Source of the DNA: a virus
Length of the DNA: 64,000 nucleotides
Virus genome (UHGV): UHGV-0038492
Direction: 5' to 3' (one strand)
Of this stretch, positions 16,180 to 30,784 are shown piece after piece; the stretch's first letter is position 1, and each line of letters opens with the position of its first letter. Position numbers and translations under genes: made by a program. The notes below the pieces were generated by a model that saw only the letters and a list, made by a program, of their open reading frames with translations, searched no databases and was not told the origin of the DNA.

Positions 16180-16662
16180 ATGAAACGTTTACATACCCTG
16201 ATGTTCTTCGTGGCTATTCTGTTCACAGGCTTTACCTTTAACGCAGAAGCGGCTACCGTAAAACAAGCACTTAGCTGTAACCCGGAAGCCTGGGCTGAAC
16301 AACCTGGTGCGTGTCCTGATATCAATACGCTCTATACCGACGATGCTACTTATAAAGCCGCAATCGATAAAGCGTTGAAACCTGTCGGACTGGACGGAAT
16401 GTTCGGTAAAGATGGTGTGATGGATGGTCCTGGCAGTGATGTTATTCCTGTGAAAATCAACGGCAAAGTCTGGCTTGAAGCTACTGGTTGTAAAAGCAAC
16501 GCCTGTGGCTGGGAATATATCACAACGCTTTATAACCCGCAGACCCATGTCGTGGTAGGTTACTATTACAACGTCGACCCAGGTTACCTGGTTTGGTTCG
16601 GCGATATCGGCGTTAATGAATTCGCTTATCTGGTTAAGAAATACGTAGCTACGGTTAATTAA
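16180..16662 (+). CDS. small secreted protein 3 (160 aa precursor) with an Ivy-like C-K-x3-C loop
   Basis: Signal peptide MKRLHTLMFFVAILFTGFTFNAEA; mature part has GCKSNACGWEY, same Cys spacing as the CKPHDC loop of Ivy-family periplasmic inhibitors but without the His. Confidence 0.7.
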   Translation: MKRLHTLMFFVAILFTGFTFNAEAATVKQALSCNPEAWAEQPGACPDINTLYTDDATYKAAIDKALKPVGLDGMFGKDGVMDGPGSDVIPVKINGKVWLEATGCKSNACGWEYITTLYNPQTHVVVGYYYNVDPGYLVWFGDIGVNEFAYLVKKYVATVN

Positions 16663-16677
16663 TTTAAGGAGTCTATC

Positions 16678-17088
16678 ATGAAAACGTTTATCAAAACTTT
16701 ACTCGTTGCTGTAACTGTTCTGTTCTCTCTTAACGTGGCAGCAAAAACAGTAAAACTACCGGCGGGTATCAAATACGTCAACAGTACCGATGAATTCTAC
16801 TGCACAGAAATTGACGGTCTGTATTGCCAGACAAAGAATTTGTTTGAATACAAAGGTAACAGATATGTTTTCGTTGTTGAGCAAGGCGGTGCCTGGTGCT
16901 ACGACAGCCCTATGTCGGTACTCAACCTGGAAACTTGGAAAGCACAGAAAATTGAATACAAAGATAACCAACTGTGCTCAGGCGAAAACAAACCGTTCTT
17001 CAAAATCAAAAATGGTGTGCCGACTGTAGGTGTTATCGACACCTCTGGAGCACCAATCGTTGTAGCTCAGGACAAACTTAAAATCTAA
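16678..17088 (+). CDS. small secreted protein 4 (136 aa precursor)
   Basis: RBS AAGGAG; signal peptide MKTFIKTLLVAVTVLFSLNVAA; four Cys in the mature part. Confidence 0.7.
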   Translation: MKTFIKTLLVAVTVLFSLNVAAKTVKLPAGIKYVNSTDEFYCTEIDGLYCQTKNLFEYKGNRYVFVVEQGGAWCYDSPMSVLNLETWKAQKIEYKDNQLCSGENKPFFKIKNGVPTVGVIDTSGAPIVVAQDKLKI

Positions 17089-17098
17089 GGAGTAAACC

Positions 17099-17488
17099 AT
17101 GCGTCTTATCTGCGCTTTGTTGGCGTTTTTCTCAATCGGAGTTATGGCTTCTACACACATCGACGATTTATTACTTACCCCGGCAACGAACACAGACTAT
17201 CACTACAACCCACCGGGTTTTGAAGTCTGCGAAGGTGATGCAGGCGAATGCCAAGAAGTTGGCGCAGATGGACGCTATATACTCGTAAAAGCAGACGGCG
17301 GGACAACCTGCCCTGCGGGTTATTATTTCGTACTTGACTCTGTAGCAAAAGAGGTGCTTCCTGTAACGACCAAAACGTGTGACCCCACAGTTGTACTAAC
17401 GCTTGCGAAAAGCAAATCACGTGACCGTCATCTTATCGTCATCGAAGAACGCGGTGAGATGCTAGGTGCTATTGAATTAGATTACTGA
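17099..17488 (+). CDS. small secreted protein 5 (129 aa precursor)
   Basis: RBS AAGGAG; signal peptide MRLICALLAFFSIGVMAS; five Cys in the mature part. Confidence 0.7.
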   Translation: MRLICALLAFFSIGVMASTHIDDLLLTPATNTDYHYNPPGFEVCEGDAGECQEVGADGRYILVKADGGTTCPAGYYFVLDSVAKEVLPVTTKTCDPTVVLTLAKSKSRDRHLIVIEERGEMLGAIELDY

Positions 17489-17499
17489 TGTGTAGTCTT

Positions 17500-17548
17500 G
17501 ACCCCGGTTCGTGCCGATTCGTCCGGGGTCCTTTTTACGACTTGTTTT
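17500..17548 (+). terminator. intrinsic terminator (GACCCCGG / CCGGGGTC stem + CTTTTT...TTTT)
   Basis: 8-bp stem 17500-17507 / 17523-17530 with 15-nt loop, followed by a T-rich tract; closes the secreted-protein operon. Confidence 0.65.
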
Positions 17549-17567
17549 ACCTAAAGGAGAATTAAAA

Positions 17568-18044
17568 ATGCGTTTATCTAATGTTTATCAAGCAGCCCAA
17601 TTCCATCACGAACTGACGGCTAAGCCTGAATATATTCGCCACAACTTAACGGTGGCTTGGAAACTGTTATTGATTGCTGATGCTGCACGGCACAACGACC
17701 AGGAAACTATTATCAAAACTGTGCGTACTTTACGCCCTATTGACCTGGAAACGATTTGGTCGTTTGACTTAACTCGAATTTATCATCGTCGTTTTAATGC
17801 GGCGGTGGATGCTATACGTCCTTATTTCCACTATTTGCAAGCAACATCGGACTGTGGTCCATCCTTAGAGTGGGTCTTGGTACAAAGCGTATGGAGCGAT
17901 TACATTTATCTCCTATCTTTAGAGACGGGTGAATGCATTATCGCTAACGAGGTATTCTCAACCAACGCTGAAATGTATCGTTCCCACGCTACTATCCAGG
18001 GTGTCTCACAGCCTATCTTATCACTCACGCACTTAGGGCTGTGA
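17568..18044 (+). CDS. hypothetical protein (158 aa)
   Basis: Track ORF 17511-18044 trimmed to ATG 17568 preceded by AAAGGAGAA. Confidence 0.65.
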   Translation: MRLSNVYQAAQFHHELTAKPEYIRHNLTVAWKLLLIADAARHNDQETIIKTVRTLRPIDLETIWSFDLTRIYHRRFNAAVDAIRPYFHYLQATSDCGPSLEWVLVQSVWSDYIYLLSLETGECIIANEVFSTNAEMYRSHATIQGVSQPILSLTHLGL

Positions 18045-18052
18045 TTAGCCCG

Positions 18053-18080
18053 GCCCCGCTGTGTACGGGGCTTCTTTTTT
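18053..18080 (+). terminator. intrinsic terminator (GCCCCG / CGGGGC stem + TTCTTTTTTG)
   Basis: 6-bp GC stem, 7-nt loop, T-run. Confidence 0.7.
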
Positions 18081-18098
18081 GCCCAAGGAAACTGAAAC

Positions 18099-18707
18099 AT
18101 GAACGAAATTACTTTGGTTCGTTTTATCGAAGCGATGCATCGAAACGAAGCTAATCCACACTCTCCATTATTCATCGATTTAATGGAGGAAGAAGTCGAA
18201 GGGTTCTTAGCGTACCCGCGTTTGAAAGCGTATTTTGAACGTAAAACACCAAGCGCTTACGAAAAGCTGATGTACGCGTTAGATAACCGTACTACGCTAA
18301 ATAATACGCCGTTTAAAGCGCTGGAAGCAATAGACCCTACCGGGGGTGCAGGTATCCCACAACGCGTTGTGTTCTACTACATCGACAACGGCCGTATTAA
18401 AGCCGACGTTGTAAACTGGATCTCCGAAGGGGAAATCCCGGAAACGCGTACTTTTAACCTCTGCCCGGTAGAAGAAGGTTGGGTCGCAGGAACGCATTAT
18501 TCCTATCCGTATCAAAGCATCAAATCACCTTATCTGTATCCGGTGTATTTAGATGACGTTACGCCAGGGAAATGTATTCCCGTTACCAATCTGATTTGTT
18601 TACTGACGATGGAAGTTGTTGCGTCAGATGCAGGCCAGGCTTGGGTTGAGCAATCGAAAAATATCCAAAACTGGCAGGAGATGGGCTACAAGCTCTATCA
18701 GCCGTAA
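18099..18707 (+). CDS. hypothetical protein (202 aa)
   Basis: Track ORF; RBS AAGGAAA. Confidence 0.7.
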   Translation: MNEITLVRFIEAMHRNEANPHSPLFIDLMEEEVEGFLAYPRLKAYFERKTPSAYEKLMYALDNRTTLNNTPFKALEAIDPTGGAGIPQRVVFYYIDNGRIKADVVNWISEGEIPETRTFNLCPVEEGWVAGTHYSYPYQSIKSPYLYPVYLDDVTPGKCIPVTNLICLLTMEVVASDAGQAWVEQSKNIQNWQEMGYKLYQP

Positions 18708-18713
18708 TACCAC

Positions 18714-18762
18714 GAGAGAACCTTCGGGTTCTCTCCCTTCTCTTTTATTTTTTTTCTTTTTA
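18714..18762 (+). terminator. intrinsic terminator (GAGAGAACC / GGTTCTCTC stem, TTCG loop, long T-tract)
   Basis: 9-bp stem 18714-18722 / 18727-18735, tetraloop TTCG, followed by CCTTCTCTTTTATTTTTTTTCTTTTT. Confidence 0.85.
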
Positions 18763-18791
18763 CACCACGCTCCGTGAATATGGAGGTGGAC

Positions 18792-21296
18792 ATGTTAAAA
18801 GTTGAACGTATTGTACTTAAAGGATTTACCGGAATGGGATTACACGAAATCGAAACCTTCGATTTTACTATCCATTCCCCGACCACCATTATCCTCGGTG
18901 GTAACGGCTGCGGTAAGACCAGCTTACTGTCCGTGTTTCTACCTATCGCACCTTCGAAATCCGAATTCCGTGACGGGGGTTCCTACACCAATATCTGTTT
19001 GGTTAACGACCATCGTTACAAGTTTAAAGTTGCACGTAAAGGCAACTCACTGGTTTGCGATATCGAGAACCTGACGACGGGTACCAAAATCGTCGAGCAA
19101 GGTAATGCGAAAGTGTACAACTCTCGCGTGGAAGAAATCACGGGTATTACAAAAGAGATTAAAGAGTTACTGAACGGAGAAGTGCTTTTAACGGATGCAG
19201 GAACGGAACTGCGTCGTAAGTGGTTCTACCGTTTAAGTACATCAGACTTAACGTACGCGTTAGGTTTTTATCAACGTTTACGAAAAAACCTAACGATGTT
19301 AAACGGCGGTATTGAAATCACCAGCCGCAAAATTGCAGAGTTGCGTACCCGCGTGATTGATAACGAGGAAGAACGTCAGCAGTTAGCAACACGGTTAAAA
19401 GCATTAGAAGCGGATTTACGTGAACTCAACAAACAGATCGAACAGCTGCCAGGTCTGAATCGTGACGTTACGGTGGCAACGATTCAATCGCTATTGCTTA
19501 AAATCGAAGCACCGATTAATGCTATCTTGGAACACCGTGGCGGATTACCTACGGAAGAACAGGTAGAGGAAGCACGACGCGTTGAAGCCACTGCCCGTGA
19601 AGCGGTGGTCTCTGCTGAAACAGAGCTGTCTATGCTAAACAAAGATTTGTCTTTGTTGATGGACGAGTCTACCCGCCAAGATTACCTGATGCGAAATCAT
19701 GAAGGGTTAAAAAACACGGTTGCGAAACTGCGCGAGTTATTAAAGCAGTGGGACACCGAACACCTTTTCCCTGAACTGTTTGCAGAGACCGTTAACATCG
19801 ACCAGCTTAAAGCAGCGACGGATGCGCGTGTCTGGGGACAACGTTTAGGAACAACGCTGGACGCCATTAAGTCAACGGAGCGGTTGAACGTACTGGAAGA
19901 GAAGCTGTTGACCTTAGACCAAAACTCGTCTGGGTTGCGTGACCGACTACAACGCGTTGAAAACGTATTGCAGAACCTCAACCACGAACGGAATCACTAT
20001 TTGGAAACCGCCGAGGTTGATTGTCCGCAGTGTCAATTTAAATTCCGTCCGGGTGTGCGTCGATCGCTGCCTGAATTGGAAGAAGCCATTCGTGGGCAGA
20101 TGGAGCAACGTAATACGTTACAGACTCAGCTTGATTCCGTGTTGCGAGACCGTACGGAATTAGAATCGGACGTTAATTACATGCGTCAAGTACGGGAAAT
20201 CGTTTTAACGTATTCGAAAGACCCGGTATTGAGTTTGTTCTTTAAACGTCTCCAGGAGCGGAATGTCTTTACGGATAACCGCAGTCAGTTCGGCAGTTTG
20301 TGCGCGGAGTTCGATCGTGAACTTTATTCTGCAATTGAGTACCACGAAACGATACACCGTTTTGCTAAAGCGGAAAAAGAGTGGGAAAATGCAGTTGCAG
20401 CGGTAGGTAACGTTGACGGTGCACTACAGCAGAAAATTGCCTTCCAGCAGGAACGTTTGGGTAAGGCGACAGAAACGCTCTCAGAGCGCCGTAGAGAGCA
20501 CGCAGTTGCTAATGATACCTTTTGTTATCTAAACGAACTTAAAGCCACTGTAGACAATTTTAATGCGGTTTTTGAGCGTTTAGAGAACGATGTTAAGGTA
20601 ACATTAACCAACACGGTGGTCGAAACGTTATTAAACGCCCGAGAAAACAAGTTGGATGCGTTCACCACAGCACGGGAACGGTACCGTCAAATGGAAAACG
20701 AACTCAACCAACTTACTGCGTTAGAAAAGGAGTTATCAGATTTACAAGCGCAGCAATTTAATAACAAACTGATGATTCAAGCGTTCTCACCTGAGAAAGG
20801 GGTGTTACGCAAATACTTCTACAACGCTATCGTGAGAATCACGGAATTGATGACGCGGTATATCGAACAAGTCTGGACCTACCCTATGCGGGTCATGCCG
20901 TGTGACTTAACCGACGGTGACTTAGACTACACGTTCCCAGTGCAGTTGAAAACCCATCCTGAACCGGTACCTGACGTACGGAAAGGGTCGAAAGCGCAGC
21001 GAGCCATCTTTAATTTGATGTTTCGTTTAACCGCTTACAAGGCCCTGAAACTTCATCAGTATCCGCTACTGTTGGATGAACCGTCAGAAGGGATGGATGA
21101 AGAACACCGAAATAACCTCGTTGGGTTTATTAAAACCTTGGCGAATTCTGGTGAGTTCTCTCAGTTACTGGTGGTGTCTCACGAAGCAGAAATTCATTCA
21201 AAACTTAACGAAGCCGCATACTGTGTTATTGAACCTGAAGGCGTAACACTGCCTGCGGTTTACAACGAAGGAGTAAAAATTGTCTACGCAAACTGA
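18792..21296 (+). CDS. Rad50 / SbcC-like ABC ATPase with coiled coil and CxxC zinc hook (834 aa)
   Basis: Track ORF 18774-21296 trimmed to ATG 18792 preceded by GGAGG; N-terminal Walker A GGNGCGKTS; central coiled-coil-like region with CPQC; C-terminal Walker B LLLDEP and H-loop VVSHEA. Confidence 0.8.
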   Translation: MLKVERIVLKGFTGMGLHEIETFDFTIHSPTTIILGGNGCGKTSLLSVFLPIAPSKSEFRDGGSYTNICLVNDHRYKFKVARKGNSLVCDIENLTTGTKIVEQGNAKVYNSRVEEITGITKEIKELLNGEVLLTDAGTELRRKWFYRLSTSDLTYALGFYQRLRKNLTMLNGGIEITSRKIAELRTRVIDNEEERQQLATRLKALEADLRELNKQIEQLPGLNRDVTVATIQSLLLKIEAPINAILEHRGGLPTEEQVEEARRVEATAREAVVSAETELSMLNKDLSLLMDESTRQDYLMRNHEGLKNTVAKLRELLKQWDTEHLFPELFAETVNIDQLKAATDARVWGQRLGTTLDAIKSTERLNVLEEKLLTLDQNSSGLRDRLQRVENVLQNLNHERNHYLETAEVDCPQCQFKFRPGVRRSLPELEEAIRGQMEQRNTLQTQLDSVLRDRTELESDVNYMRQVREIVLTYSKDPVLSLFFKRLQERNVFTDNRSQFGSLCAEFDRELYSAIEYHETIHRFAKAEKEWENAVAAVGNVDGALQQKIAFQQERLGKATETLSERRREHAVANDTFCYLNELKATVDNFNAVFERLENDVKVTLTNTVVETLLNARENKLDAFTTARERYRQMENELNQLTALEKELSDLQAQQFNNKLMIQAFSPEKGVLRKYFYNAIVRITELMTRYIEQVWTYPMRVMPCDLTDGDLDYTFPVQLKTHPEPVPDVRKGSKAQRAIFNLMFRLTAYKALKLHQYPLLLDEPSEGMDEEHRNNLVGFIKTLANSGEFSQLLVVSHEAEIHSKLNEAAYCVIEPEGVTLPAVYNEGVKIVYAN

Positions 21297-21480
21297 TTGG
21301 TGGCGTCAGTTACTAAGCGTTTTAGGGTTTAGCGTCATGGTGCTGGTTGCCATTCTGTACGTGCTATTTTGTATAACGGCGATTTTATGGGTGGTCTTAG
21401 CGTACGCGATTAGACTCGCCTGGGGTTCAATTTGGCACCAACGCGAATGTGAGTGGCGGTGTGTTGGAGGGAAGTCATGA
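21280..21480 (+). CDS. small membrane protein (66 aa)
   Basis: TTG start preceded by AGGAG, overlapping the end of the ATPase gene; very hydrophobic, about two transmembrane segments. Confidence 0.45.
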   Translation: MSTQTDWWRQLLSVLGFSVMVLVAILYVLFCITAILWVVLAYAIRLAWGSIWHQRECEWRCVGGKS

Positions 21481-21587
21481 TTGAGGGTATTCTGTTAACA
21501 CTTGGGTCGTTGTGGATTATTGGGAAATCCCTCAACTGGCTGATTAAAAAGTACGGATGGGCTTTCAAAGGCTCTACGCACAGTTAA
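21477..21587 (+). CDS. micro membrane peptide (36 aa, MIEGILLTLGSLWIIGKSLNWLIKKYGWAFKGSTHS)
   Basis: ATG overlaps the preceding stop (ATGA); one predicted TM helix; too short for the track. Confidence 0.3.
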   Translation: MIEGILLTLGSLWIIGKSLNWLIKKYGWAFKGSTHS

Positions 21588-21595
21588 GTTAGAAC

Positions 21596-21625
21596 CCCCT
21601 CCTGGGTAACTGGGAGGGCGTTTTA
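21596..21625 (+). terminator. weak hairpin terminator candidate (CCCTCC / GGAGGG + GTTTT)
   Basis: 6-bp stem with 10-nt loop and a short T-run. Confidence 0.3.
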
Positions 21626-21637
21626 CGAGGGAAAACC

Positions 21638-21766
21638 ATGACTGTTGTCAATACTACCAATGCTGCAATTGGCGCTTTATACAACGCGGAACTAACATGG
21701 GGTGCGGGATTTATTACCGTACTGCTTCTTGCCGCAGCCGCTTTTATCATTGGACGTTGGTTTTAA
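21638..21766 (+). CDS. micro membrane peptide (42 aa, MTVVNTTNAAIGALYNAELTWGAGFITVLLLAAAAFIIGRWF)
   Basis: ATG preceded by GAGGGAAAACC; one predicted TM helix. Confidence 0.35.
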   Translation: MTVVNTTNAAIGALYNAELTWGAGFITVLLLAAAAFIIGRWF

Positions 21767-21799
21767 TTTCAATCTTTTTGCGTCTGTAAGGTCTGATAA

Positions 21800-22243
21800 A
21801 TGGAAATTTATTTGTTGAACGCACTTTCTAAAATCGGTGAAGAACAAGCGAAAGATTTACTCGCACTTCATTACCGTTACTTAGATCACCAAGCAACGAT
21901 GCTGAAAATCAAAACCGCTGTACCGAAATTAAACGTGCGTCAACTGATCGAAGGCAACTGTGTTGTTCTGATTTATATCGACGATGTTGCGGTGGGTTAT
22001 TGCAGTTACCGTAATCGCAACGGGGTACTCAAAATTCGTTCGTTATACGTGCTACCCGATTACCGTCAGCGCGGGGTAATGAAAGAAATCTTCAAAGCGA
22101 TAGCCGCTGATGAAACATTCGGTGAAATTGCCATTGGGATGTACACGAAGTGCAAAGAAGCGAAAGAGTATTTCATTCGTCGTGGCTACAAAGCAACCTA
22201 TTCTCACGATAAAGAATGGGTGGATTTCAGCAAAACTTTCTAA
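21800..22243 (+). CDS. GNAT-family N-acetyltransferase (147 aa)
   Basis: LKIRSLYVLPDYRQRGVMKEIFKAI resembles the GNAT acetyl-CoA-binding motif region. Confidence 0.7.
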   Translation: MEIYLLNALSKIGEEQAKDLLALHYRYLDHQATMLKIKTAVPKLNVRQLIEGNCVVLIYIDDVAVGYCSYRNRNGVLKIRSLYVLPDYRQRGVMKEIFKAIAADETFGEIAIGMYTKCKEAKEYFIRRGYKATYSHDKEWVDFSKTF

Positions 22244-22253
22244 AACAATAAAG

Positions 22254-22304
22254 GCTCTCTTGACGTTCCTCACTATGAGTGTGAGATTTTTACGTCAGGA
22301 GAGC
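22254..22304 (+). promoter_or_regulatory. stem-loop that base-pairs the Shine-Dalgarno of the gene starting at 22310
   Basis: 12-bp stem GCTCTCTTGACG (22254-22265) / CGTCAGGAGAGC (22293-22304) with one G-U pair, enclosing a smaller CTCAC / GTGAG hairpin; the right arm contains the AGGAG ribosome-binding site. Confidence 0.4.
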
Positions 22305-22309
22305 TACTT

Positions 22310-22546
22310 ATGTTAAACAGTTTCGGTGTAGGTGGAATGGATACAAGCATTTGCTGGAAAGAATACGAACGCGCAAAAGCATTTCTCCAGCATCCCAACG
22401 TGGGTAAGATCGGTCAGGTGTGTTTTGGTAAACCTGCACTGACAGCCTGTATTCAAGGTGCGTTAGGAACGCTGCCACCTGAATCACCTTTCGAGCCTAA
22501 GGAGAATCCAGATGTTACCAGGAACCCAAACCCCGTATCTATTTAG
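22310..22546 (+). CDS. hypothetical protein (78 aa)
   Basis: Track ORF; RBS AGGAGAG; overlaps the next ORF by 35 nt in another frame. Confidence 0.5.
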   Translation: MLNSFGVGGMDTSICWKEYERAKAFLQHPNVGKIGQVCFGKPALTACIQGALGTLPPESPFEPKENPDVTRNPNPVSI

Positions 22547-22886
22547 TGAACCACTGGATAACAGCGACATCTTACAAATCTGTTATCAGTGTCACGAAAT
22601 CGGTGGCAGTGAACTTACGCGGGTTAATAAACTACTGTGGCTGATTCCAGAAATCGAATTACCGTTCGTTAAGCCGAGTTTGTGGCGTCGTGGTGCGTGC
22701 CGCGAAGCGTATATGCTGTCAAGATTTAACATTAATCTGGAGAAGGTCTGGGAGAAAATGAATGACGCCCAAACCCGAGAACAGATTACGCACACGCTAG
22801 AATTGCACCTTGCCATGAATCGCCTCGGTCTCGAACACGAAGGGCTGGAGTCCGTTATCAGTCAATGGGTGAAAAGGAATCGTTAA
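22512..22886 (+). CDS. hypothetical protein (124 aa)
   Basis: Track ORF; RBS AAGGAGAA. Confidence 0.55.
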   Translation: MLPGTQTPYLFSEPLDNSDILQICYQCHEIGGSELTRVNKLLWLIPEIELPFVKPSLWRRGACREAYMLSRFNINLEKVWEKMNDAQTREQITHTLELHLAMNRLGLEHEGLESVISQWVKRNR

Positions 22887-22993
22887 TGTCTAAAACGTAT
22901 ATAGCGATTTTGGTTGAGTTGGCGATTGGCGGAACGCGGTTTATCCCTGTGCATCAATTATGCTTACCTCACTCGGTAAGACCGTTATGTTAA
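22886..22993 (+). CDS. small ORF (35 aa)
   Basis: ATG overlaps the preceding stop (TAATG); RBS AAAGGAA; overlaps the start of the macro-domain gene; real-gene status uncertain. Confidence 0.25.
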   Translation: MSKTYIAILVELAIGGTRFIPVHQLCLPHSVRPLC

Positions 22994-23484
22994 CGATACT
23001 TCCAGAATCGGATATTGACAACGACCTGTTTAATGCGCCTGAGCGCTTCAAGGTCGTTACGATAAATTGCGTAGGGGCAATGGGTCGGGGTATCGCTTTA
23101 GCGTGCAGAGAACGCTATCCTGGGCTTTATCAGGACTACCGAGAACGTTGCTTCGCTAACGAAATACGAATAGGGAATGTGTATGTTTATCCCGAGGAAA
23201 ACTGCATTCTCTTACCAACCAAAACACATTGGAAACTAAAATCCCAGGTTTCTTATGTTATCGCGGGTATCACCGCGTTGGCAGATGCCGCAGAAAATTT
23301 AGAGGGTGGGGTGGCTTTACCGCCGTTAGGGATGGCTAACGGTTGGTTGACAAAAGCTGAACGTCAACAAATCTTTTTGTTTATCGAAAAGAAACTCGTA
23401 CCGAGGAGACAACATTACCGTTTCTATTTACCCGATACGCTTTACCAAGAAGCAAAACCTTTAATTCCAAACCTTTTTAAATAG
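22987..23484 (+). CDS. putative macro-domain (ADP-ribose binding / hydrolase) protein
   Basis: VVTINCVGAMGRGIALAC resembles the Gly-rich ADP-ribose-binding loop of macro domains and LPPLGMANGW the second conserved Gly motif; alternative start at 22960; assignment is motif-level only. Confidence 0.5.
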   Translation: MLTILPESDIDNDLFNAPERFKVVTINCVGAMGRGIALACRERYPGLYQDYRERCFANEIRIGNVYVYPEENCILLPTKTHWKLKSQVSYVIAGITALADAAENLEGGVALPPLGMANGWLTKAERQQIFLFIEKKLVPRRQHYRFYLPDTLYQEAKPLIPNLFK

Positions 23485-23584
23485 ATATTATCATTAGGGC
23501 ACACAACAAAGGAGTACCAGCTGTCCGCGCCGTGATTTCGTTCTACGGAACACGGAAATGTATAAATCCAACTGGAGAACTAGT

Positions 23585-24271
23585 ATGTTTCGTACCTTCT
23601 TTCTTTTACTGGTAACACTTTTCGCGTTTAACGCATACGCATCCAAATCCGCACCCAGTGCCAAACACCATCGTGAATTCGAAATGATTCAAGACCGTTT
23701 CGAACGTGTAAAACCGTTGATTGTGGAAATCTCCCGAAAGCAGGGTGTTGATCCTAAGTTGATGACCACGCTAATCTATCGAGAATCACGGTTTAATCCG
23801 AAGGCGTATAATCGAACGTCTAAAGCGCACAGTCTGGTTCAGATGCTACCGAGCACAAAGCGTAATTTACTAAAACTCTACGGCAACGAAATCGGACTTA
23901 GTCGTAACGCGGATTTGTATAATCCTCGTAATGCGGTGCTATTGGCTTCCGTCTACGTTAAACATTTAGAAAAGGGGTTGACTAAACGACTCAAACGCAA
24001 GCCCACTATTGCAGAAATTGCATTGGCTTATCACTGGGGTGAAAGTGGTGCACACGCCAGGATTAAAAGCAAGTCTCGGGCGGCACAACGAGAAATGGCG
24101 AGCTTTATGAAAGATGCAACGTTCTACAGTGCGAAAATCGACAAGCCTGTAGCATCTCGTCAGCTTGCGTTTGCGAAGAAACCAGAACGCCAGATTCAGT
24201 TAGCGGAAGTTAACCGAATTTGGGATACGATAAACACCAGTTTTCCATTTAAACAAGGAGTCACCCTTTGA
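23585..24271 (+). CDS. secreted lytic transglycosylase (SLT-domain, candidate endolysin)
   Basis: Track ORF 23558-24271 trimmed to ATG 23585 preceded by GGAGAA; signal peptide MFRTFFLLLVTLFAFNAYA; SLT family-1 signature YRESRFNPKAY...AHSLVQM. Confidence 0.8.
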   Translation: MFRTFFLLLVTLFAFNAYASKSAPSAKHHREFEMIQDRFERVKPLIVEISRKQGVDPKLMTTLIYRESRFNPKAYNRTSKAHSLVQMLPSTKRNLLKLYGNEIGLSRNADLYNPRNAVLLASVYVKHLEKGLTKRLKRKPTIAEIALAYHWGESGAHARIKSKSRAAQREMASFMKDATFYSAKIDKPVASRQLAFAKKPERQIQLAEVNRIWDTINTSFPFKQGVTL

Positions 24272-24777
24272 GCATCGTTGTAACCGATTGGTATAAAGGT
24301 ATCACTAAGGCTACCCAACTCACTGCCCAGGACGTATATAGCATCGTTCGTAGCAGTAGCGAAGACCAGATAAAGTCCGACGAAGACTTTGCAACGCGTC
24401 ATGAGTTTTACGATGCCCTTAAAACGGCTTTCGGTGATGACGAAGAAGAAGGTTTAGAGTTTGACTGGAACGTCAACCTTGCCTTGTTGTGGATTTGCGG
24501 ATTACGTCCGAGTGTGAAAGACACGGAGCAAGGGAAAGTTCTGTTGTGGCACTACACCGGTAAATACAATCCGAACCAGGTCTTTAAAGAAGCGTATATG
24601 GAAGCCACTGTAGAGTTACAGAATCTGCTGTTGGGTGAGAACACCTACTGTCAGCGTAGCTTCCTGACGATTCTGGAGAAACTGGCGACTACGCACAAAA
24701 TCTGGCGACAGGCAGATGCCCCTGAACACATCTTCGTTCTGGAATTTACTGTGATTCCAAACCAACCGTTCTTTTAA
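24268..24777 (+). CDS. hypothetical protein (169 aa)
   Basis: Track ORF, TTG start preceded by AAGGAG. Confidence 0.6.
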   Translation: MSIVVTDWYKGITKATQLTAQDVYSIVRSSSEDQIKSDEDFATRHEFYDALKTAFGDDEEEGLEFDWNVNLALLWICGLRPSVKDTEQGKVLLWHYTGKYNPNQVFKEAYMEATVELQNLLLGENTYCQRSFLTILEKLATTHKIWRQADAPEHIFVLEFTVIPNQPFF

Positions 24778-24783
24778 TACTTG

Positions 24784-24822
24784 CCCCTAATCCAATCGGA
24801 TTAGGGGTACTTTCATTTATTC
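24784..24822 (+). terminator. hairpin terminator, CCCTA...TAGGG family (CCCCTAATCC / GGATTAGGGG)
   Basis: 10-bp stem 24784-24793 / 24798-24807, 4-nt loop, moderately T-rich tail. Confidence 0.55.
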
Positions 24823-24840
24823 CCCTAAAGGAGCAAAGGT

Positions 24841-25320
24841 ATGTTGAAGTTTATCTGGCGTTACCCAACCCGCTTTTGGTTCGTGGTATTAGAGGTAATC
24901 ACCGTTCTACTGTTAGTGACGTTCGTAAACGTCCCTACGAAACAAATGGTGATTTTCTGTGTATTCGTGGCTATACCGCTGTGGGTGTTTGCAAAGATTA
25001 TTAAGTTTTGCATGATAAGCTGGGCGAACTACACCTGTCCATTTAAACCCAGAGAAATCATGAATTGGCTGATGTATATCGAAGACCGTTTACCCGCTCA
25101 GTCTAAAACACTGGGCTGGGAATCGATGTTGGATATTGCGCTAGAAACGAATGCAAAATTCCCTGGGTCAAAGAATCCCTATTTGCTGCTGGCCGTTATT
25201 GTTGCCCAGCAGAAACGTGCGGGTGAACGCTGGCTACCGGAAGAAGCGAAAGACTATATTCGTAAGCACCCGAAGGCTTTCTATTCCGTAGGTCAATGGC
25301 GTAACCTCCCACTCTTTTAA
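24841..25320 (+). CDS. membrane protein (159 aa, two N-terminal TM helices)
   Basis: RBS AAAGGAG; hydrophobic segments FWFVVLEVITVLLLVTFV and MVIFCVFVAIPLWVFAKII. Confidence 0.7.
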   Translation: MLKFIWRYPTRFWFVVLEVITVLLLVTFVNVPTKQMVIFCVFVAIPLWVFAKIIKFCMISWANYTCPFKPREIMNWLMYIEDRLPAQSKTLGWESMLDIALETNAKFPGSKNPYLLLAVIVAQQKRAGERWLPEEAKDYIRKHPKAFYSVGQWRNLPLF

Positions 25321-25373
25321 CTTTTTTACAAAACCCTTAGTTGATTTGAACAAACCTAAAGAGGACTATTAAA

Positions 25374-26318
25374 ATGACTTTTCCATCTGAAGTAATCTAC
25401 ACACTGGCTAATATTTTTCGCCGTGGCCATAATTTCCCACAGTTCCGGAAATCAGCAGATGTTACAGCCGACTTTCTGTTTAATTATCTAATTGGTACCG
25501 ATCCTGCAAGCGTTACGCAGGAAACAATTATGGATATTGAACGTGTCTCGGAAATTATCCCGATCGACTACGCCTCAGGGTATCAAGACGGAGTTAAGTT
25601 CAACTTCTCAATGGGTATGCGTCGGACTTCCATTGACATTAAGCCACGCACGAGTAACGAAACCCTTCCAGCAGCAAACTACAATCACGAAGCTCACGGT
25701 AACTGGTTAGTTGTTGTAGAGCAGGGTAAGAATCAGTATGAAGTCGTCGCGGCTAAAGAAGAAAACTATTTCGACCTGGGTCAGATTTCTCGTACTGAAG
25801 AAATCTTTTTTAATGCACGTCAGGGCAATATCGGTGTAACTGGAAGTACGGTTTGTTTCATTCTAAGCAGCTGGCCGCATATTGGTTACGTCTTAACCAA
25901 CGCCTCCAAAACATTCCACACTTTAAAAATAGAGCACAGTCATAAAGTGCTGGGTGATTTGTTTGCTGCCGACGACGAACTACCAGTCCCTGGTACAGAA
26001 GTCGCTGTCTGTGAAAACTACGATGATCTGAAATCTGTGCTCGTTAAACGTGATGTTTTCGAATCGTTAAACCTGGATTTCCCTGGTGACGAAAAAGAAA
26101 TATCCGTAGCTGACCTGGTAGAAGCATTGTGTCAGAAAGACCAAGCTAATGAGATCAGTGACGAAGAAGCGGAACTCTTCCAAGTTCAACAACTCGTCAG
26201 CAAGGTTATCGGCGGCCAGGAAATCGTTGACACCCTTATGGCTTTACCGCCGAAGAAACGTACTCAAAAGTACATTCGTGAACTGGTTCTTGAAAACCTG
26301 GGTCAAGCCAAAAAGTAA
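25374..26318 (+). CDS. hypothetical protein (314 aa); paralogue of the gene at 26379
   Basis: RBS AAAGAGGA; N-terminus MTFPSEVIYTLANIFRRGHNFPQF...FLFNYL parallels MFPSSEYLTHLAYGIRRGSVFRTR...FLFDRL of the next gene. Confidence 0.75.
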   Translation: MTFPSEVIYTLANIFRRGHNFPQFRKSADVTADFLFNYLIGTDPASVTQETIMDIERVSEIIPIDYASGYQDGVKFNFSMGMRRTSIDIKPRTSNETLPAANYNHEAHGNWLVVVEQGKNQYEVVAAKEENYFDLGQISRTEEIFFNARQGNIGVTGSTVCFILSSWPHIGYVLTNASKTFHTLKIEHSHKVLGDLFAADDELPVPGTEVAVCENYDDLKSVLVKRDVFESLNLDFPGDEKEISVADLVEALCQKDQANEISDEEAELFQVQQLVSKVIGGQEIVDTLMALPPKKRTQKYIRELVLENLGQAKK

Positions 26319-26326
26319 TTTAAGTC

Positions 26327-26360
26327 CCCTACTCCTCCGGGAGTAGGGTTATTCTTTTTT
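26327..26360 (+). terminator. intrinsic terminator, CCCTACTCC family
   Basis: 9-bp stem CCCTACTCC (26327-26335) / GGAGTAGGG (26340-26348), 4-nt loop, followed by TTATTCTTTTTT. Confidence 0.8.
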
Positions 26361-26378
26361 CCATCTTAGGAGTATTAA

Positions 26379-26927
26379 ATGTTTCCATCGTCTGAATATT
26401 TAACCCACCTGGCTTACGGTATTCGTCGTGGTTCTGTTTTCCGTACACGTTTAAAGGATATAAATTTCCTGGCTAATTTCTTATTTGACCGTTTGGGAGA
26501 TGGCAATAGCGTTTACAAAAAGATCACCACAACACAACTTTATTCCCTTATAGCAGCGTCTGAAATTGTACCTACAGATATTTGGCGATTCAAACGGTAT
26601 TGCGAGGGAATTACGATCAGTTTTCTTGATCATTCACCGATTACCGTTGAAATCGTCGATCGTGTTGATATTAATAGTGAAGTATCAGGTTGGAAGATTC
26701 TGTTTGATTGTGGCAATCGTTATGCGGTACTTGGTTCTTCTGATGAGCGCGACTTCCCATTCGACAAACCCTACTACTACCTCAACGAAGATGAATTCCC
26801 GGATAAAGAATCCAATATCTTTTTAAACGGGAATACCGTTTACTTCATTTTTCGTACCTGGAACGATGTTGCTGCTATGATTGCTCAAGGCGTCATCGAT
26901 TACCGTAAACTAGAAGTCGACATTTAA
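26379..26927 (+). CDS. hypothetical protein (182 aa); paralogue of the gene at 25374
   Basis: RBS AGGAG; N-terminal similarity to the preceding gene. Confidence 0.75.
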   Translation: MFPSSEYLTHLAYGIRRGSVFRTRLKDINFLANFLFDRLGDGNSVYKKITTTQLYSLIAASEIVPTDIWRFKRYCEGITISFLDHSPITVEIVDRVDINSEVSGWKILFDCGNRYAVLGSSDERDFPFDKPYYYLNEDEFPDKESNIFLNGNTVYFIFRTWNDVAAMIAQGVIDYRKLEVDI

Positions 26928-26937
26928 AATAAAAGCT

Positions 26938-26975
26938 ACCCTACTCCCGAAAAGGAGTAGGGTAATTTCTTTTAG
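26938..26975. terminator. bidirectional terminator, CCCTACTCC family
   Basis: 10-bp stem ACCCTACTCC (26938-26947) / GGAGTAGGGT (26954-26963), 6-nt loop; U-rich flanks on both strands; between convergent gene ends 26927 (+) and 26972 (-). Confidence 0.75.
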
Positions 26976-27595
26976 TTAACTAACCCGTTAGCTTTAAGAA
27001 TCTCTAACATCTGGTTGTTTAACTCTTTTAATTTTTTGTTTTCGTTTGTCAACGAAGTAACTTGTTCCGACAACGGAATAGCCTCTCGAATTTTCCTTTT
27101 CCGAGCTGCTTCCATTTGCAGGTGTTGCTCCTCCGTCACTTTCCCTTCATACTCCATGGTCGTGATTTCGACTTTCGGGTCAATACCCAACGTACGGGTA
27201 AGAATATCCGAAACGTCTTTAGTCATCACCGACACATCTACATAATCCGGTACAAACGATAAGTCCACCACCATCACATTACGCTGATACGCAATTCCCG
27301 ATAAACCAGGACACGATTCTACGTAAGTGTCAGGAATATAAACGACTTGGCCATCGCGTGATTTAAACGTAAGTATTGACGCGTTAACGGTAGCATCAGC
27401 AAGATATTCTTCTCGCTCCAACCCGACGGGCTTGTAATACTCGTTGTAAACATCAATATTCTGACGTACTAAATCTGGGAAGGTACGTGATGCCTCCACC
27501 GTGAAGATAACCGTTTCGGCTAACGTAAACGGTGTTTTTACCTTAAATAAACCCGTTGTGTTGACGGGAACCAAAAGAGGTAAACGCGTAGCCAT
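26972..27595 (-). CDS. hypothetical protein (207 aa), coiled-coil C-terminus
   Basis: Track ORF; second gene of a two-gene minus-strand island. Confidence 0.7.
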   Translation of the reverse strand: MATRLPLLVPVNTTGLFKVKTPFTLAETVIFTVEASRTFPDLVRQNIDVYNEYYKPVGLEREEYLADATVNASILTFKSRDGQVVYIPDTYVESCPGLSGIAYQRNVMVVDLSFVPDYVDVSVMTKDVSDILTRTLGIDPKVEITTMEYEGKVTEEQHLQMEAARKRKIREAIPLSEQVTSLTNENKKLKELNNQMLEILKANGLVN

Positions 27596-27598
27596 TCA

Positions 27599-28972
27599 TT
27601 ACTCCTCGTCGATTTCAGTGTACCATTTCGCTTTACGAGACAGTATACGGTATTCGACGTTATCGTATTCGAACACCCAGAAGTAGTTATCTGGATCGGC
27701 TTCATCAACGAGTTTCACGACGTCCAGACTGGTCTGATACGGATGGTATTCTTCCGCTGCTATTAGCGCCTGGAAGAACAACGCTAACCACTCGGTGGTG
27801 GATTTCGACATTCGTGCAATGTCTGGGTTTGTTGTTGCAATCAGTGCGTAGTCTGGTAACGTTTCGTGTAAGGTATTCTTACGAGTGTCGTTCTCAGGGC
27901 CACTGATAACCACCATGTTCAGCGATTTATACACGGTCGGTAAATCGGTAACATCCGTCGTCGGTTTGCTTACCGTATTACTATTTCTTTCTGCAACAGA
28001 CTGATCAGACCATTCCCCAAACTTTGTAATGGCTTTGACCCAGAAATCATATGGAAGGATGGGGGAATAGAGAGCCGCCACGTCTTCCTCATTCGGTATA
28101 CCACGGATTTTCCACCCCGGAACCATTGTGAATTTCGTGGTGGTAAAGATCTCAGGGAATACCTTCACTCCAATCGGAACCGTAAAGCTGGAGTTTGCAA
28201 GAATATGTTCACGCAACGCTTGCTTTATTTTCGTTGGGTTTTTTCCTGCACGTCCGTAAATGATAACCGACATTGGAACAACCAGTGTTGACTCGTAGTT
28301 TTCTTGGTCATGCCAGGTGTAGTAGTTAGTCTGGATGGCAGTATACGGGAACCCTGCCATTAACTCGTTGATTTTCTTATGGTGTTCGGTAAGGTTAAAC
28401 CCTTCCATCGCTTTTTCAACGACTGACTTCGTGGCCAAAAACGTGTCGATTGGCTCAATCGGCATTTGCACTTCGATTTCATAACCCGTGTAGTCCTGGT
28501 CGAAGTCTTCATCCGAGAACCAAACTATGATTTGGTTATCTACATCAGTGTCATCTTGTACTTGATCTGCTGTTGCTTCATATTTCCAGCTCACCCAACG
28601 TGGGAACCAGTTACTGTTCGTCTGGATCATCGCACCGGACTGGACACCGGAAATGGTTGATTGGAATTGGCCTAATAATAGGCGCTGGAATTCAAGTTCG
28701 TCATTTCTCAGATTCCCCAAGATGGCTTGCTGGTAAATCCATTGAGAAACGGTTAGAATATGATCAGAAAACTCGGCTGGAACAACAACCGTCTGTTTTT
28801 CTCGTTTAGACGTAAATGTCACCAACTGCACTTGCAGATTGGATTTAGTAAACGTCTGTTTACTCTTCGCGTACGAGAGGGTCAAATCAGACAGCTCACC
28901 TACCGGAGCGGTGACGCCGTCCTGATTGTCAAACAGAGCCGGTATCTGAATAAAACCTTGTAAGTCTAACAT
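27599..28972 (-). CDS. hypothetical protein (about 457 aa)
   Basis: Track ORF 27599-29032 trimmed to the internal ATG at 28970-28972, which has GGAG upstream; the 29032 ATG has no RBS and would overlap the divergent plus gene. Confidence 0.65.
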   Translation of the reverse strand: MLDLQGFIQIPALFDNQDGVTAPVGELSDLTLSYAKSKQTFTKSNLQVQLVTFTSKREKQTVVVPAEFSDHILTVSQWIYQQAILGNLRNDELEFQRLLLGQFQSTISGVQSGAMIQTNSNWFPRWVSWKYEATADQVQDDTDVDNQIIVWFSDEDFDQDYTGYEIEVQMPIEPIDTFLATKSVVEKAMEGFNLTEHHKKINELMAGFPYTAIQTNYYTWHDQENYESTLVVPMSVIIYGRAGKNPTKIKQALREHILANSSFTVPIGVKVFPEIFTTTKFTMVPGWKIRGIPNEEDVAALYSPILPYDFWVKAITKFGEWSDQSVAERNSNTVSKPTTDVTDLPTVYKSLNMVVISGPENDTRKNTLHETLPDYALIATTNPDIARMSKSTTEWLALFFQALIAAEEYHPYQTSLDVVKLVDEADPDNYFWVFEYDNVEYRILSRKAKWYTEIDEE

Positions 28973-28997
28973 AATTAAAAATACTCCGAGGTGAGCA

Positions 28998-29501
28998 ATG
29001 GGTTCATTTCTTAAAGTGCTTCCGTTCTTCATTCAGATGTTGATGGAAGCATTTAAACCAGGAGAAGGAGAAAACGTATCAAGAGCAAACAAGATAATGA
29101 CTTTAATCATCACGGTCTTGTTATCCTACTCGGCTTTCGTCTCCTATGCGTACGTAGTGCAGTTTCACAAGCTCGTTACAGTACAATCTCATGATCAATA
29201 CATGTCGCAATCTTACCAAGAGATGAAGCAAGATCGTGACAAACTGAAAGATGATAATGGTAGACTATACGACAAGCTCTTTATTTGCCTCGGCCAGAAA
29301 CCGCCATATGAAAGCGGGTACAGCTCGGTAAAAGAAGACAACTCTACCAAAGATTTAACACCTAAGAAACCAGAAACTCCTGTTAGCCCAGCTTCAACAC
29401 CAGAACAACGCAGAGAAGCTTCGGCGCGACCTGTTGGTAGTCAAAACGCTAACAGTTTCCGTCAGGAGATCATAAAGACGTTATCCTCACCTAAGGAGTA
29501 A
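28998..29501 (+). CDS. membrane protein with one TM helix and coiled-coil region (167 aa); spanin-like architecture
   Basis: RBS GAGGTGA; hydrophobic segment IMTLIITVLLSYSAFVSYAYVV followed by a charged helical region. Confidence 0.65.
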   Translation: MGSFLKVLPFFIQMLMEAFKPGEGENVSRANKIMTLIITVLLSYSAFVSYAYVVQFHKLVTVQSHDQYMSQSYQEMKQDRDKLKDDNGRLYDKLFICLGQKPPYESGYSSVKEDNSTKDLTPKKPETPVSPASTPEQRREASARPVGSQNANSFRQEIIKTLSSPKE

Positions 29502-29504
29502 CTG

Positions 29505-29960
29505 ATGAAATTGCTGTTATTCATCATGATTTTGTGCGTGGGTTTGGTGAGTAATAGCTATGGAGAACCCGGTAAACGGCCATCCTATACTGCGTTACAA
29601 CCTCCGCCAGCGCCGCCTATCATGCTAAATTGGAAAATTGATAAAGACGCGATGCGGGAATATGTTGCGGATGTGAATACATACGCTTATTACGTTTATC
29701 TCTACACACGAAACTTAAATCAACAAGCAGTCAAACGCGGGTGGAATCCACCGATGTTAGCACCTATCTGCGAACGGTTTGAAATTCCTAAATTACATTC
29801 CGTTCCAGAAAAGATGTTATTAGACGACAAAGCGTTAACGCCACAAGAAATCAGTCGGGATTTATCACGTAAACTGAATTCGTTGTTGTGGAATTATCGC
29901 TCTGACCGGCAAGCTTTATTAGACGCCTACGATCAGTATCTGACAACGTGTTTGAACTGA
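29505..29960 (+). CDS. secreted proline-rich protein (151 aa precursor)
   Basis: Start 4 nt after the preceding stop; signal-peptide-like MKLLLFIMILCVGLVSNSYG; PPPAPP stretch; no canonical lipobox. Confidence 0.65.
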   Translation: MKLLLFIMILCVGLVSNSYGEPGKRPSYTALQPPPAPPIMLNWKIDKDAMREYVADVNTYAYYVYLYTRNLNQQAVKRGWNPPMLAPICERFEIPKLHSVPEKMLLDDKALTPQEISRDLSRKLNSLLWNYRSDRQALLDAYDQYLTTCLN

Positions 29961-29965
29961 CAACG

Positions 29966-30005
29966 CCTCCTGTACCCTTCGGGGTACAGGAGGTATTTTC
30001 TTTTT
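29966..30005 (+). terminator. intrinsic terminator (CCTCCTGTACCC / GGGTACAGGAGG, TTCG loop)
   Basis: Perfect 12-bp stem 29966-29977 / 29982-29993, followed by TATTTTCTTTTT. Confidence 0.85.
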
Positions 30006-30047
30006 AACGTTTAACCCCCTTCTAATGTATAGAGAAAGGAGCTTAAC

Positions 30048-30782
30048 ATGACATACCCGAAAACGATTCAACCCACCTTACCGACGCTGGTAATTGGTGC
30101 TGACGCAGAAACCAAATCACTGCGTCCTGATGCGTATTTGTTAACCACAGGCTTAGTTGCCTTTGATGTACCGACTTTAAAAATGGTAGGGTCGTCGTAT
30201 ATGCGTATTGATCCTAATGACCCTAAAGCAAAAGCTGTGTTCCACGAAGACCCACAGACCGTAGGATGGTGGGAAGGTAAAGGGGAACCTGAATACGCAC
30301 CGTCTCGTGAAGCCTACACGGAAGCATGGGGCGGTACAACACCTATGCCGGAAGCGCTGTGGGCAATGCGTAAGTGGTTAGACGAAATCACCGGTAAGCA
30401 CAATTTTGTTATCACCATGCGTGGGCCGGATTTCGATTCGCCTATTTTCATGAACGCGTTCGCACAATGTGACGTCCCTCCAGGTAAATTCCGTAAGTTC
30501 AGCGCGTTAGACAGTGACCGTACCGCAGAACGTTTAGCGTTGGCGTTTGGTTTTGAACCCGACTTGACCGTTGAGCAAGTTTACTGGACGCGCGGTAAAC
30601 CGGCATTTGAACACCATGCATTGTGGGATGCTGCGAAAGAAGCTTACACCACTGCACGTATTTATCACCTTGCACTGATTACCCGCGAGTACGGGTACGA
30701 ACGTGCTAAAGCCTGTCACGAAGAACTGAAGACCGGTGAGTATATTCCACCTCAGATTCGTGATCAGTTAACCAGGGATTAA
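30048..30782 (+). CDS. DEDDh-type 3-prime-5-prime exonuclease (DnaQ-like fold)
   Basis: Exo I-like VIGADAETKSL, Exo II-like RGPDFDSPIF, Exo III-like HHALWDAAKEAY. Confidence 0.7.
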   Translation: MTYPKTIQPTLPTLVIGADAETKSLRPDAYLLTTGLVAFDVPTLKMVGSSYMRIDPNDPKAKAVFHEDPQTVGWWEGKGEPEYAPSREAYTEAWGGTTPMPEALWAMRKWLDEITGKHNFVITMRGPDFDSPIFMNAFAQCDVPPGKFRKFSALDSDRTAERLALAFGFEPDLTVEQVYWTRGKPAFEHHALWDAAKEAYTTARIYHLALITREYGYERAKACHEELKTGEYIPPQIRDQLTRD

Positions 30783-30784
30783 GA

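Follow-up and report, generated by a model that had tools for sequence, protein, structure and literature searches.

The open reading frame (ORF) at 22987..23484 (+) of the 64-kb window, by which we mean the whole stretch of viral DNA that was analyzed, is best explained as the AdfM gene of an SPN3US/Asesino-like nucleus-forming jumbo phage, the product of which would erase DarT2 marks from phage DNA. We assign this reading a probability of about 0.8. The analysis established the macrodomain fold of the protein, its affinity with the DarG subclass, its catalytic residues, its orthology and synteny, and its orphan status. On the strength of published homologues, the protein would be expected to have DNA ADP-ribosylglycohydrolase activity, to be specific for DarT2 products, to localize to the phage nucleus, and to serve a counter-defense role.

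The coding sequence of this stand-alone, DarG2-like AdfM orthologue specifies 165 aa, and its coordinates include the stop codon (TAA at 23482..23484, +). The mechanical ORF start is an alternative in-frame ATG that adds 22960..22986 (+) and gives 174 aa, which is also the length of the gene call on the Logan contig. Relatives at 91%, 78%, and 62 to 64% identity are 165 to 166 aa long, and the alignment with them begins at the Met encoded at 22987. Because the closest homologues have this length and align from that Met, the ATG at 22987 is preferred as the better start, and the ATG at 22960 is probably not the true one. The ORF marked out in a preliminary description of this DNA is real and lies on the plus strand, with its 165-aa start supported by homologues. 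A strong Shine-Dalgarno sequence is absent before both ATG codons. A 42-aa ORF (22865..22993, +) overlaps the macrodomain start at 22987 through the sequence ATGTTAA, and in SPN3US the small ORF gp071 likewise overlaps the start of gp070. This overlap suggests that translational coupling of the small ORF and the macrodomain gene is possible. When 21700..24400 was scanned for promoters and terminators, no signal above shuffle expectation was found.

The Pfam Macro model (PF01661) matched the protein with 19.2 bits versus a gathering score of 22 (E, 1.2e-3), which is below threshold. Pfam alone would leave the macrodomain call ambiguous, and on that model alone the caution of the preliminary description, which had offered a motif-level assignment, would be justified. 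The protein also matched PHROG 335 (E, 4.5e-29; PHROG label, "phosphatase"), the NCBIfam model antitoxin_DarG (NF048014; E, 6.5e-31; model positions 7 to 154 of 338), and the PADLOC DarG model (E, 3.8e-31; model positions 7 to 150 of 329). In a phmmer search of the PDB, the top match was 5M3I, the DarG macrodomain of Mycobacterium tuberculosis (E, 2.5e-20), followed by 5M31/5M3E, the DarG macrodomain of Thermus aquaticus (Taq; E, 6.4e-18), and then by 7OMU, a Thermosipho DarTG fusion. The DarG macrodomains are ~35 to 37% identical to the window protein. A profile built from 28 members of the clade was run against the PDB and recovered DarG (E, 1.8e-33 and 9.2e-31), 7OMU (2.1e-20), human TARG1 (~6e-4), and nothing else. 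The single-sequence search also gave a weak match of residues 82 to 150 (~23230..23436) to HalA, the Hailong defense effector (9NYI; E, 0.0039). HalA was absent from the clade-profile search at E <= 0.01, and its match probably reflects chance or a remote likeness in fold.

An AlphaFold2 model, computed with the clade alignment as input, had a pLDDT of 95.4 and a pTM of 0.91 and consisted of alternating strands and helices. These form the three-layer alpha/beta/alpha arrangement of a macrodomain, with a central mixed beta-sheet. Foldseek placed the model closest to 5M3E, 5M31, and 5M3I (E, 2.6e-13; TM, 0.77/0.84; root mean square deviation, 2.2 Å), and 7OMU, TARG1 (TM, ~0.70), and then generic viral and cellular macrodomains ranked below DarG. 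At E <= 1e-3 the model had 194 fold matches in the PDB; the 50 fold matches listed were macrodomains apart from 5LNC, a carrier construct with an SPX domain, and some designed serine hydrolases. Sequence (DarG models, ~1e-31) and predicted fold thus agree on the macrodomain assignment. The structure prediction that had been suggested as a check returned a macrodomain that superposes best on DarG 5M3E. The comparison class named with that check did not hold up, since no MacroD or YmdB chain appeared in the PDB phmmer or clade-profile searches and none was recognized among the top 50 fold matches; DarG and TARG1 came first. As judged from sequence and model together, the window protein is a macrodomain of the DarG/TARG1-type subclass.

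Database names for this family point in other directions. "Appr-1-p phosphatase," "RNase III inhibitor," and "protein-ADP-ribosylation protein" were rejected as inherited generic names; the "RNase III inhibitor" label of 5M3I is the depositor's name for M. tuberculosis DarG. It is very improbable that the protein is an Appr-1''-p phosphatase acting in tRNA/RNA repair metabolism, as the PHROG 335 label and the many orthologues named "putative Appr-1-p processing protein" would have it and as a weak match to yeast Poa1p (6LFT; E, 0.05) might be taken to support. These labels are generic macrodomain names rather than tested functions, and the Poa1p-type matches are marginal by sequence and stand at rank 28 by fold. 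A DarG-type catalytic Lys and the DarG-specific profile matches also disfavor such an activity, and no RNA ligase or tRNA-repair gene was present among the neighbors of the macrodomain gene.

The Gly-rich motif and the LPPLGMANGW motif that had first been likened to macrodomain ADP-ribose-binding loops are both present and align with the loops of DarG. Loop 1 (VVTINCVGAMGRGIALAC; residues 23 to 40; 23053..23106, +) is the ADP-ribose-binding loop that carries Asn27, and loop 2 (LPPLGMANGW; residues 111 to 120; 23317..23346, +) is the diphosphate/distal-ribose-binding loop. Their counterparts in the DarG macrodomain, VNTVNTVGVMGKGVALQF and LPPLGAGNGG, can be aligned with them column for column. 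Loop 1 aligns with Taq DarG T20, N22, K29, V31, and Q34, which correspond to T25, N27, R34, I36, and A39 of the window protein. Loop 2 aligns with Taq DarG G117 to G122, where G117 corresponds to G115, G119 to A117, N120 to N118, G121 to G119, and G122 to W120. At the remaining positions compared, Taq DarG N8 corresponds to D13, L9 to L14, T79 to T78, K80 to K79, H82 to H81, and W83 to W82. The residues of Taq DarG in contact with ADP-ribose are N8, L9, T20, N22, V31, Q34, T79, G117, G119, N120, and G121, and the loop from G117 to G122 closes over the ligand (PMC5179494). Besides the catalytic residues, T25, T78, G115, N118, and G119 are kept in the window protein relative to Taq DarG, and the clade shows no variation at the loop 2 residues P112, P113, L114, G115, G119, and W120.

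The DarG/TARG1 subclass is marked by a Lys in a PTK(x)HW motif together with an Asn in loop 1, and the window protein has both residues. The Lys, Lys79 (codon AAA, 23221..23223, +; PTKTHW), corresponds to Taq DarG K80, PhiKZ AdfM K78, and TARG1 K84 and is present in all 28 clade members. The Asn, Asn27 (codon AAT, 23065..23067, +), corresponds to Taq DarG N22 and PhiKZ AdfM N23 and is present in 27 of the 28. K80 is the catalytic lysine of Taq DarG; the K80A mutant is dead, and the N22A, K29E, and G119E substitutions strongly impair activity (PMC5179494, Jankevicius et al.). Mutation of the Asn (N23A) impairs PhiKZ AdfM as well (PMC13309987).

The clade member without this Asn, P0011 (from ENA; 157 member sequences; a 1371-nt contig), is 75% identical to the window protein and has Tyr at the position of Asn27 (TIYCVG). 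This substitution may mark it as a naturally occurring variant, altered or low in activity. A close relative of this kind, together with the fact that macrodomains can be pure binders, is what would favor a noncatalytic role as an ADP-ribose reader or sponge, in which molecules derived from ADP-ribose are sensed or sequestered. We consider such a role highly unlikely for the window protein; the invariant Lys and the nearly invariant Asn, which the window protein retains, contradict it, and the homologous PhiKZ AdfM is a multiple-turnover enzyme (PMC13309987). The first proposal had been that the protein would "reverse or sense" ADP-ribosylation. Reversal is the part that stands, and sensing is less likely, since the protein retains the catalytic Asn and Lys.

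The clade departs from DarG at three ligand contacts: Taq DarG Q34 is A39, G119 is A117, and G122 is the invariant W120. The second loop of this SPN3US/Asesino-like clade reads G-M/L-A/V-N/S-G-W throughout its 28 members. Ala117 (23335..23337, +) is Ala or Val in the clade and occupies the position of Taq DarG G119, at which Glu is inhibitory. PhiKZ AdfM, with a loop 2 of GCANGG, has Ala at this position too, and because that enzyme is active, Ala is compatible with activity there. Trp120 (23344..23346, +) is invariant in the clade, whereas DarG and PhiKZ AdfM (NGGL) have Gly. From the alignments, Trp120 appears to be the sole feature that sets the SPN3US/Asesino branch apart from both DarG and PhiKZ AdfM. 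It is conceivable, if rather doubtful, that the loop remodeled by W120, A117, and A39 gives the enzyme a substrate range unlike that of PhiKZ AdfM or DarG2, such as another base, RNA, or marks made by divergent DarT-like transferases able to enter the phage nucleus.

These same loop changes would also suit a TARG1-like hydrolase with a non-DNA substrate, that is, an enzyme that removes protein or RNA marks made by host or phage ADP-ribosyltransferases or that deacylates O-acyl-ADP-ribose. TARG1 is the next-best structural class after DarG and has the catalytic Lys in common with it (PMC5179494), and macrodomains are common in jumbo phages, with varied proposed roles (PMC9503650). We nevertheless regard this as unlikely. 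With the clade profile, the similarity to DarG exceeds that to TARG1 by >25 orders of magnitude, DNA modified by DarT2 is the substrate of the characterized homologue, and the Asesino orthologue enters a nucleus that contains DNA. Moreover, Taq DarG W83, which may stack on thymine (PMC5179494), has a W or F counterpart in every one of the 28 clade members, which argues against a non-DNA substrate. By analogy with the homologues, the mark removed is most likely the ADP-ribose that DarT2 places on thymidine in single-stranded DNA (ssDNA) rather than a protein mark.

Since DarG is the antitoxin of a toxin-antitoxin pair and the best family-model matches are to DarG, the ORF could have encoded the antitoxin of a DarTG module carried by the phage. 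The score against antitoxin_DarG was 107.8 versus an equivalog cutoff of 250, with only positions 7 to 154 of the 338 matched. The protein stops at the end of the macrodomain, at 165 aa, and is without the DarT-binding C-terminal domain of full DarG (~330 to 350 aa). Its neighbors are a GNAT acetyltransferase, small ORFs without an assigned role, and an SLT transglycosylase; none is DarT-like or otherwise toxin-like, and none of the 10 ORFs neighboring the macrodomain gave a Pfam match to DarT/DUF4433. When the whole 64-kb window was searched in all six frames with DarT2 (tblastn and phmmer), nothing was found (best E, 1.5); the query was a single Pseudomonas aeruginosa DarT2 sequence (from PMC13309987), which a very divergent DarT could escape. 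A DarTG module is effectively refuted for this window. The window contains no second macrodomain, and there is one copy of the AdfM gene per genome. The gene is an orphan antitoxin-like enzyme gene and no part of a toxin-antitoxin module, because a DarT partner is lacking, only the macrodomain half is present, and the neighbors are free of toxins.

By tblastn, homologues of the ORF were found in 244 phage records, mostly of jumbo phages, whose hosts include Pseudomonas, Erwinia, Escherichia, Salmonella, and Serratia. SPN3US-like phages ranked highest, at 64%, together with Erwinia phage Asesino, at 62%. SPN3US gp070, which carries the RefSeq name "macro domain-containing protein," is 64% identical to the window protein. 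Asesino gp217 (YP_009290835.1) is a syntenic orthologue with 62.2% identity (E, 2e-76), and PhiKZ gp104, translated from the construct in PMC13309987, is 34.6% identical (E, 2e-25). Protein copies with 78% identity also occur on large contigs in Salmonella enterica assemblies.

The window, SPN3US, and Asesino have a common gene order of SMC-like ATPase, GNAT acetyltransferase, small ORFs, macrodomain, and SLT transglycosylase (gp080, gp075, gp070, and gp068 in SPN3US and gp207, gp212, gp217, and gp218 in Asesino for the SMC, GNAT, macrodomain, and SLT genes, respectively). In the window, the order begins with an 840-aa SMC/Rad50-like ATPase (18774..21296, +) that has long coiled coils and a Pfam SMC_N match split over residues 10 to 814; its SPN3US and Asesino orthologues are named "SMC domain-containing protein." The GNAT-family acetyltransferase (21800..22243, +; Pfam Acetyltransf_1/7/10) keeps its position in SPN3US gp075 and Asesino gp212. 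In all three phages, two to five small ORFs separate the GNAT gene from the macrodomain gene downstream of it; a GNAT gene likewise adjoins the macrodomain match of Serratia phage Yaphecito. Directly downstream of the macrodomain is the SLT lytic transglycosylase (23558..24271, +), which has a hydrophobic N-terminal signal-like segment and is kept in SPN3US and Asesino.

The rest of the window is that of a phiKZ-like phage. It encodes phiKZ-type virion proteins and a split/fragment-type RNA polymerase (RNAP) beta subunit (61028..62653, +), which is typical of phiKZ-like phages with their multisubunit RNAP. Other genes specify an Rv2179c-like 3'-5' exoribonuclease family protein (30048..30782, +; PF16473), an adjoining RNase H-like "ribonuclease" of 503 aa (30785..32296, +; PHROG 3265), a UvsX-like recombinase (38406..39902, +), and a tail protein of 2377 aa (53865..60998, -) that contains an internal transglycosylase domain. 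A nucleotide search with 4 kb around the macrodomain gene against GenBank phages returned only 130 nt at 81.5% identity, in Erwinia phage pEa_SNUABM_29, which covers 3% of the query. With no close GenBank phage match at the nucleotide level, comparisons were therefore made at the protein level. A 16-kb Logan contig (SRR29013974 contig 91, locus L003) is 97.9% identical to window positions 16261..31484; a near-identical phage was therefore present in that sample. From these sequence comparisons, we take the window to be from an SPN3US/Asesino-like jumbo phage that is absent from the GenBank phage collection. SPN3US and Asesino are experimentally documented nucleus formers, and from its relatedness to them, the split RNAP beta subunit, and the colinearity, we infer that the window phage would form a nucleus of the chimallivirus type.

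AdfM ("anti-DarT factor macro") is the name given to PhiKZ gp104, PhiPA3 gp108, Goslar gp83, and Asesino gp217 (Morgan et al., Cell Rep 2026, PMC13309987). According to that study, the macrodomain of PhiKZ gp104 is DarG2-like; the protein is imported into the phage nucleus, and it strips the ADP-ribose made by DarT2 from the second T of TNTC in ssDNA. PhiKZ gp104 fully rescued DarT2 toxicity in E. coli and was required for PhiKZ growth on DarTG2-positive clinical strains; without it, PhiKZ DNA was modified, and replication and packaging failed (PMC13309987). The preliminary description had anticipated a phage protein that counters host ADP-ribosylating defenses, and such reversal has thus been demonstrated experimentally for a homologue; for the window protein, it would hold by analogy. 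About half of chimalliviruses carry an AdfM homologue, and a GFP fusion of Asesino gp217 localized to the Asesino phage nucleus (PMC13309987). Nuclear import was demonstrated in that study for the Asesino, PhiKZ, and PhiPA3 AdfM proteins only. Earlier, gp104 had been used as a model cargo of the PicA pathway (PMC11087766). PicA import depends on non-conserved, phage-specific surface patches, and because of this, localization is not predictable from sequence (PMC11087766).

Put together, the proposed mechanism would run as follows. DarT2 of a host DarTG2 system would ADP-ribosylate thymidines in the ssDNA of the infecting phage, at TNTC motifs, and this modification would block phage replication and packaging. 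The phage macrodomain would be made in the cytoplasm and, as in the homologues, imported by PicA into the phage nucleus, where the phage DNA lies. Its two Gly-rich loops would bind the DNA-linked ADP-ribose; Lys79 would cleave the ribose-thymine bond while Asn27 positions the substrate, and unmodified DNA would be restored. The homologue from which the enzymology comes, PhiKZ gp104, is 35% identical to the window protein.

The AdfM family thereby gains a fairly divergent member from a phage outside the GenBank phage collection, and within the SPN3US/Asesino lineage the macrodomain gene is seen to hold a fixed, conserved position. From the presence of AdfM, the phage is predicted to resist enterobacterial hosts that carry DarTG2, a point of relevance for host-range prediction and for choosing phages for therapy. 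Since the family received its name in a 2026 publication and SPN3US gp070 already carried a macrodomain annotation, no new concept is introduced. The sole possible conceptual addition to the AdfM paper is the branch-specific active-site loop, if it has changed specificity.

Among known systems, AdfM is the closest counterpart. Like the published AdfM proteins, the window protein is a stand-alone macrodomain of ~160 to 166 aa that is closest to DarG2, has the conserved Asn and Lys, and comes from a phiKZ-related jumbo phage. It differs in belonging to the enterobacterial SPN3US/Asesino branch, for which nuclear localization (Asesino) has been published, whereas the enzymology comes from PhiKZ gp104. 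It also differs in its loop 2, GMANGW, whose invariant Trp stands in place of the Gly of PhiKZ AdfM and DarG, and in being basic (pI 8.3) while PhiKZ gp104 is acidic (pI 5.05). With DarG2, the antitoxin of the type II/IV toxin-antitoxin system DarTG2, it has in common the macrodomain subclass, the fold (TM, 0.77/0.84), and the catalytic residues N22 and K80, and judging from these residues the expected chemistry would likewise be removal of ADP-ribose from ssDNA thymidine. In contrast to DarG2, it is phage encoded, lacks the C-terminal DarT-binding domain and an adjacent DarT, and falls below the equivalog cutoff. TARG1/C6orf130 (4J5S) is the nearest structural class other than DarG and has the catalytic lysine at a common position, yet it is ~17% identical, with a profile E value of ~6e-4, and acts on ADP-ribose linked to Glu or Asp of proteins.

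Phages also carry other anti-DarT factors. AdfN, the phage NADAR protein directed against DarTG1, is likewise an orphan copy of the enzymatic domain of an antitoxin and erases DNA ADP-ribosylation (PMC11825919). Unlike the window protein, AdfN has the unrelated NADAR fold, its substrate is DNA modified by DarT1, and its carriers are T-even phages, which are without a nucleus (PMC11825919). AdfA (RB69/T4) and AdfB (ICP1 Gp145) are phage anti-DarT factors as well, but they are small and non-enzymatic, are thought to bind and block DarT directly, and have no homology to the window protein.
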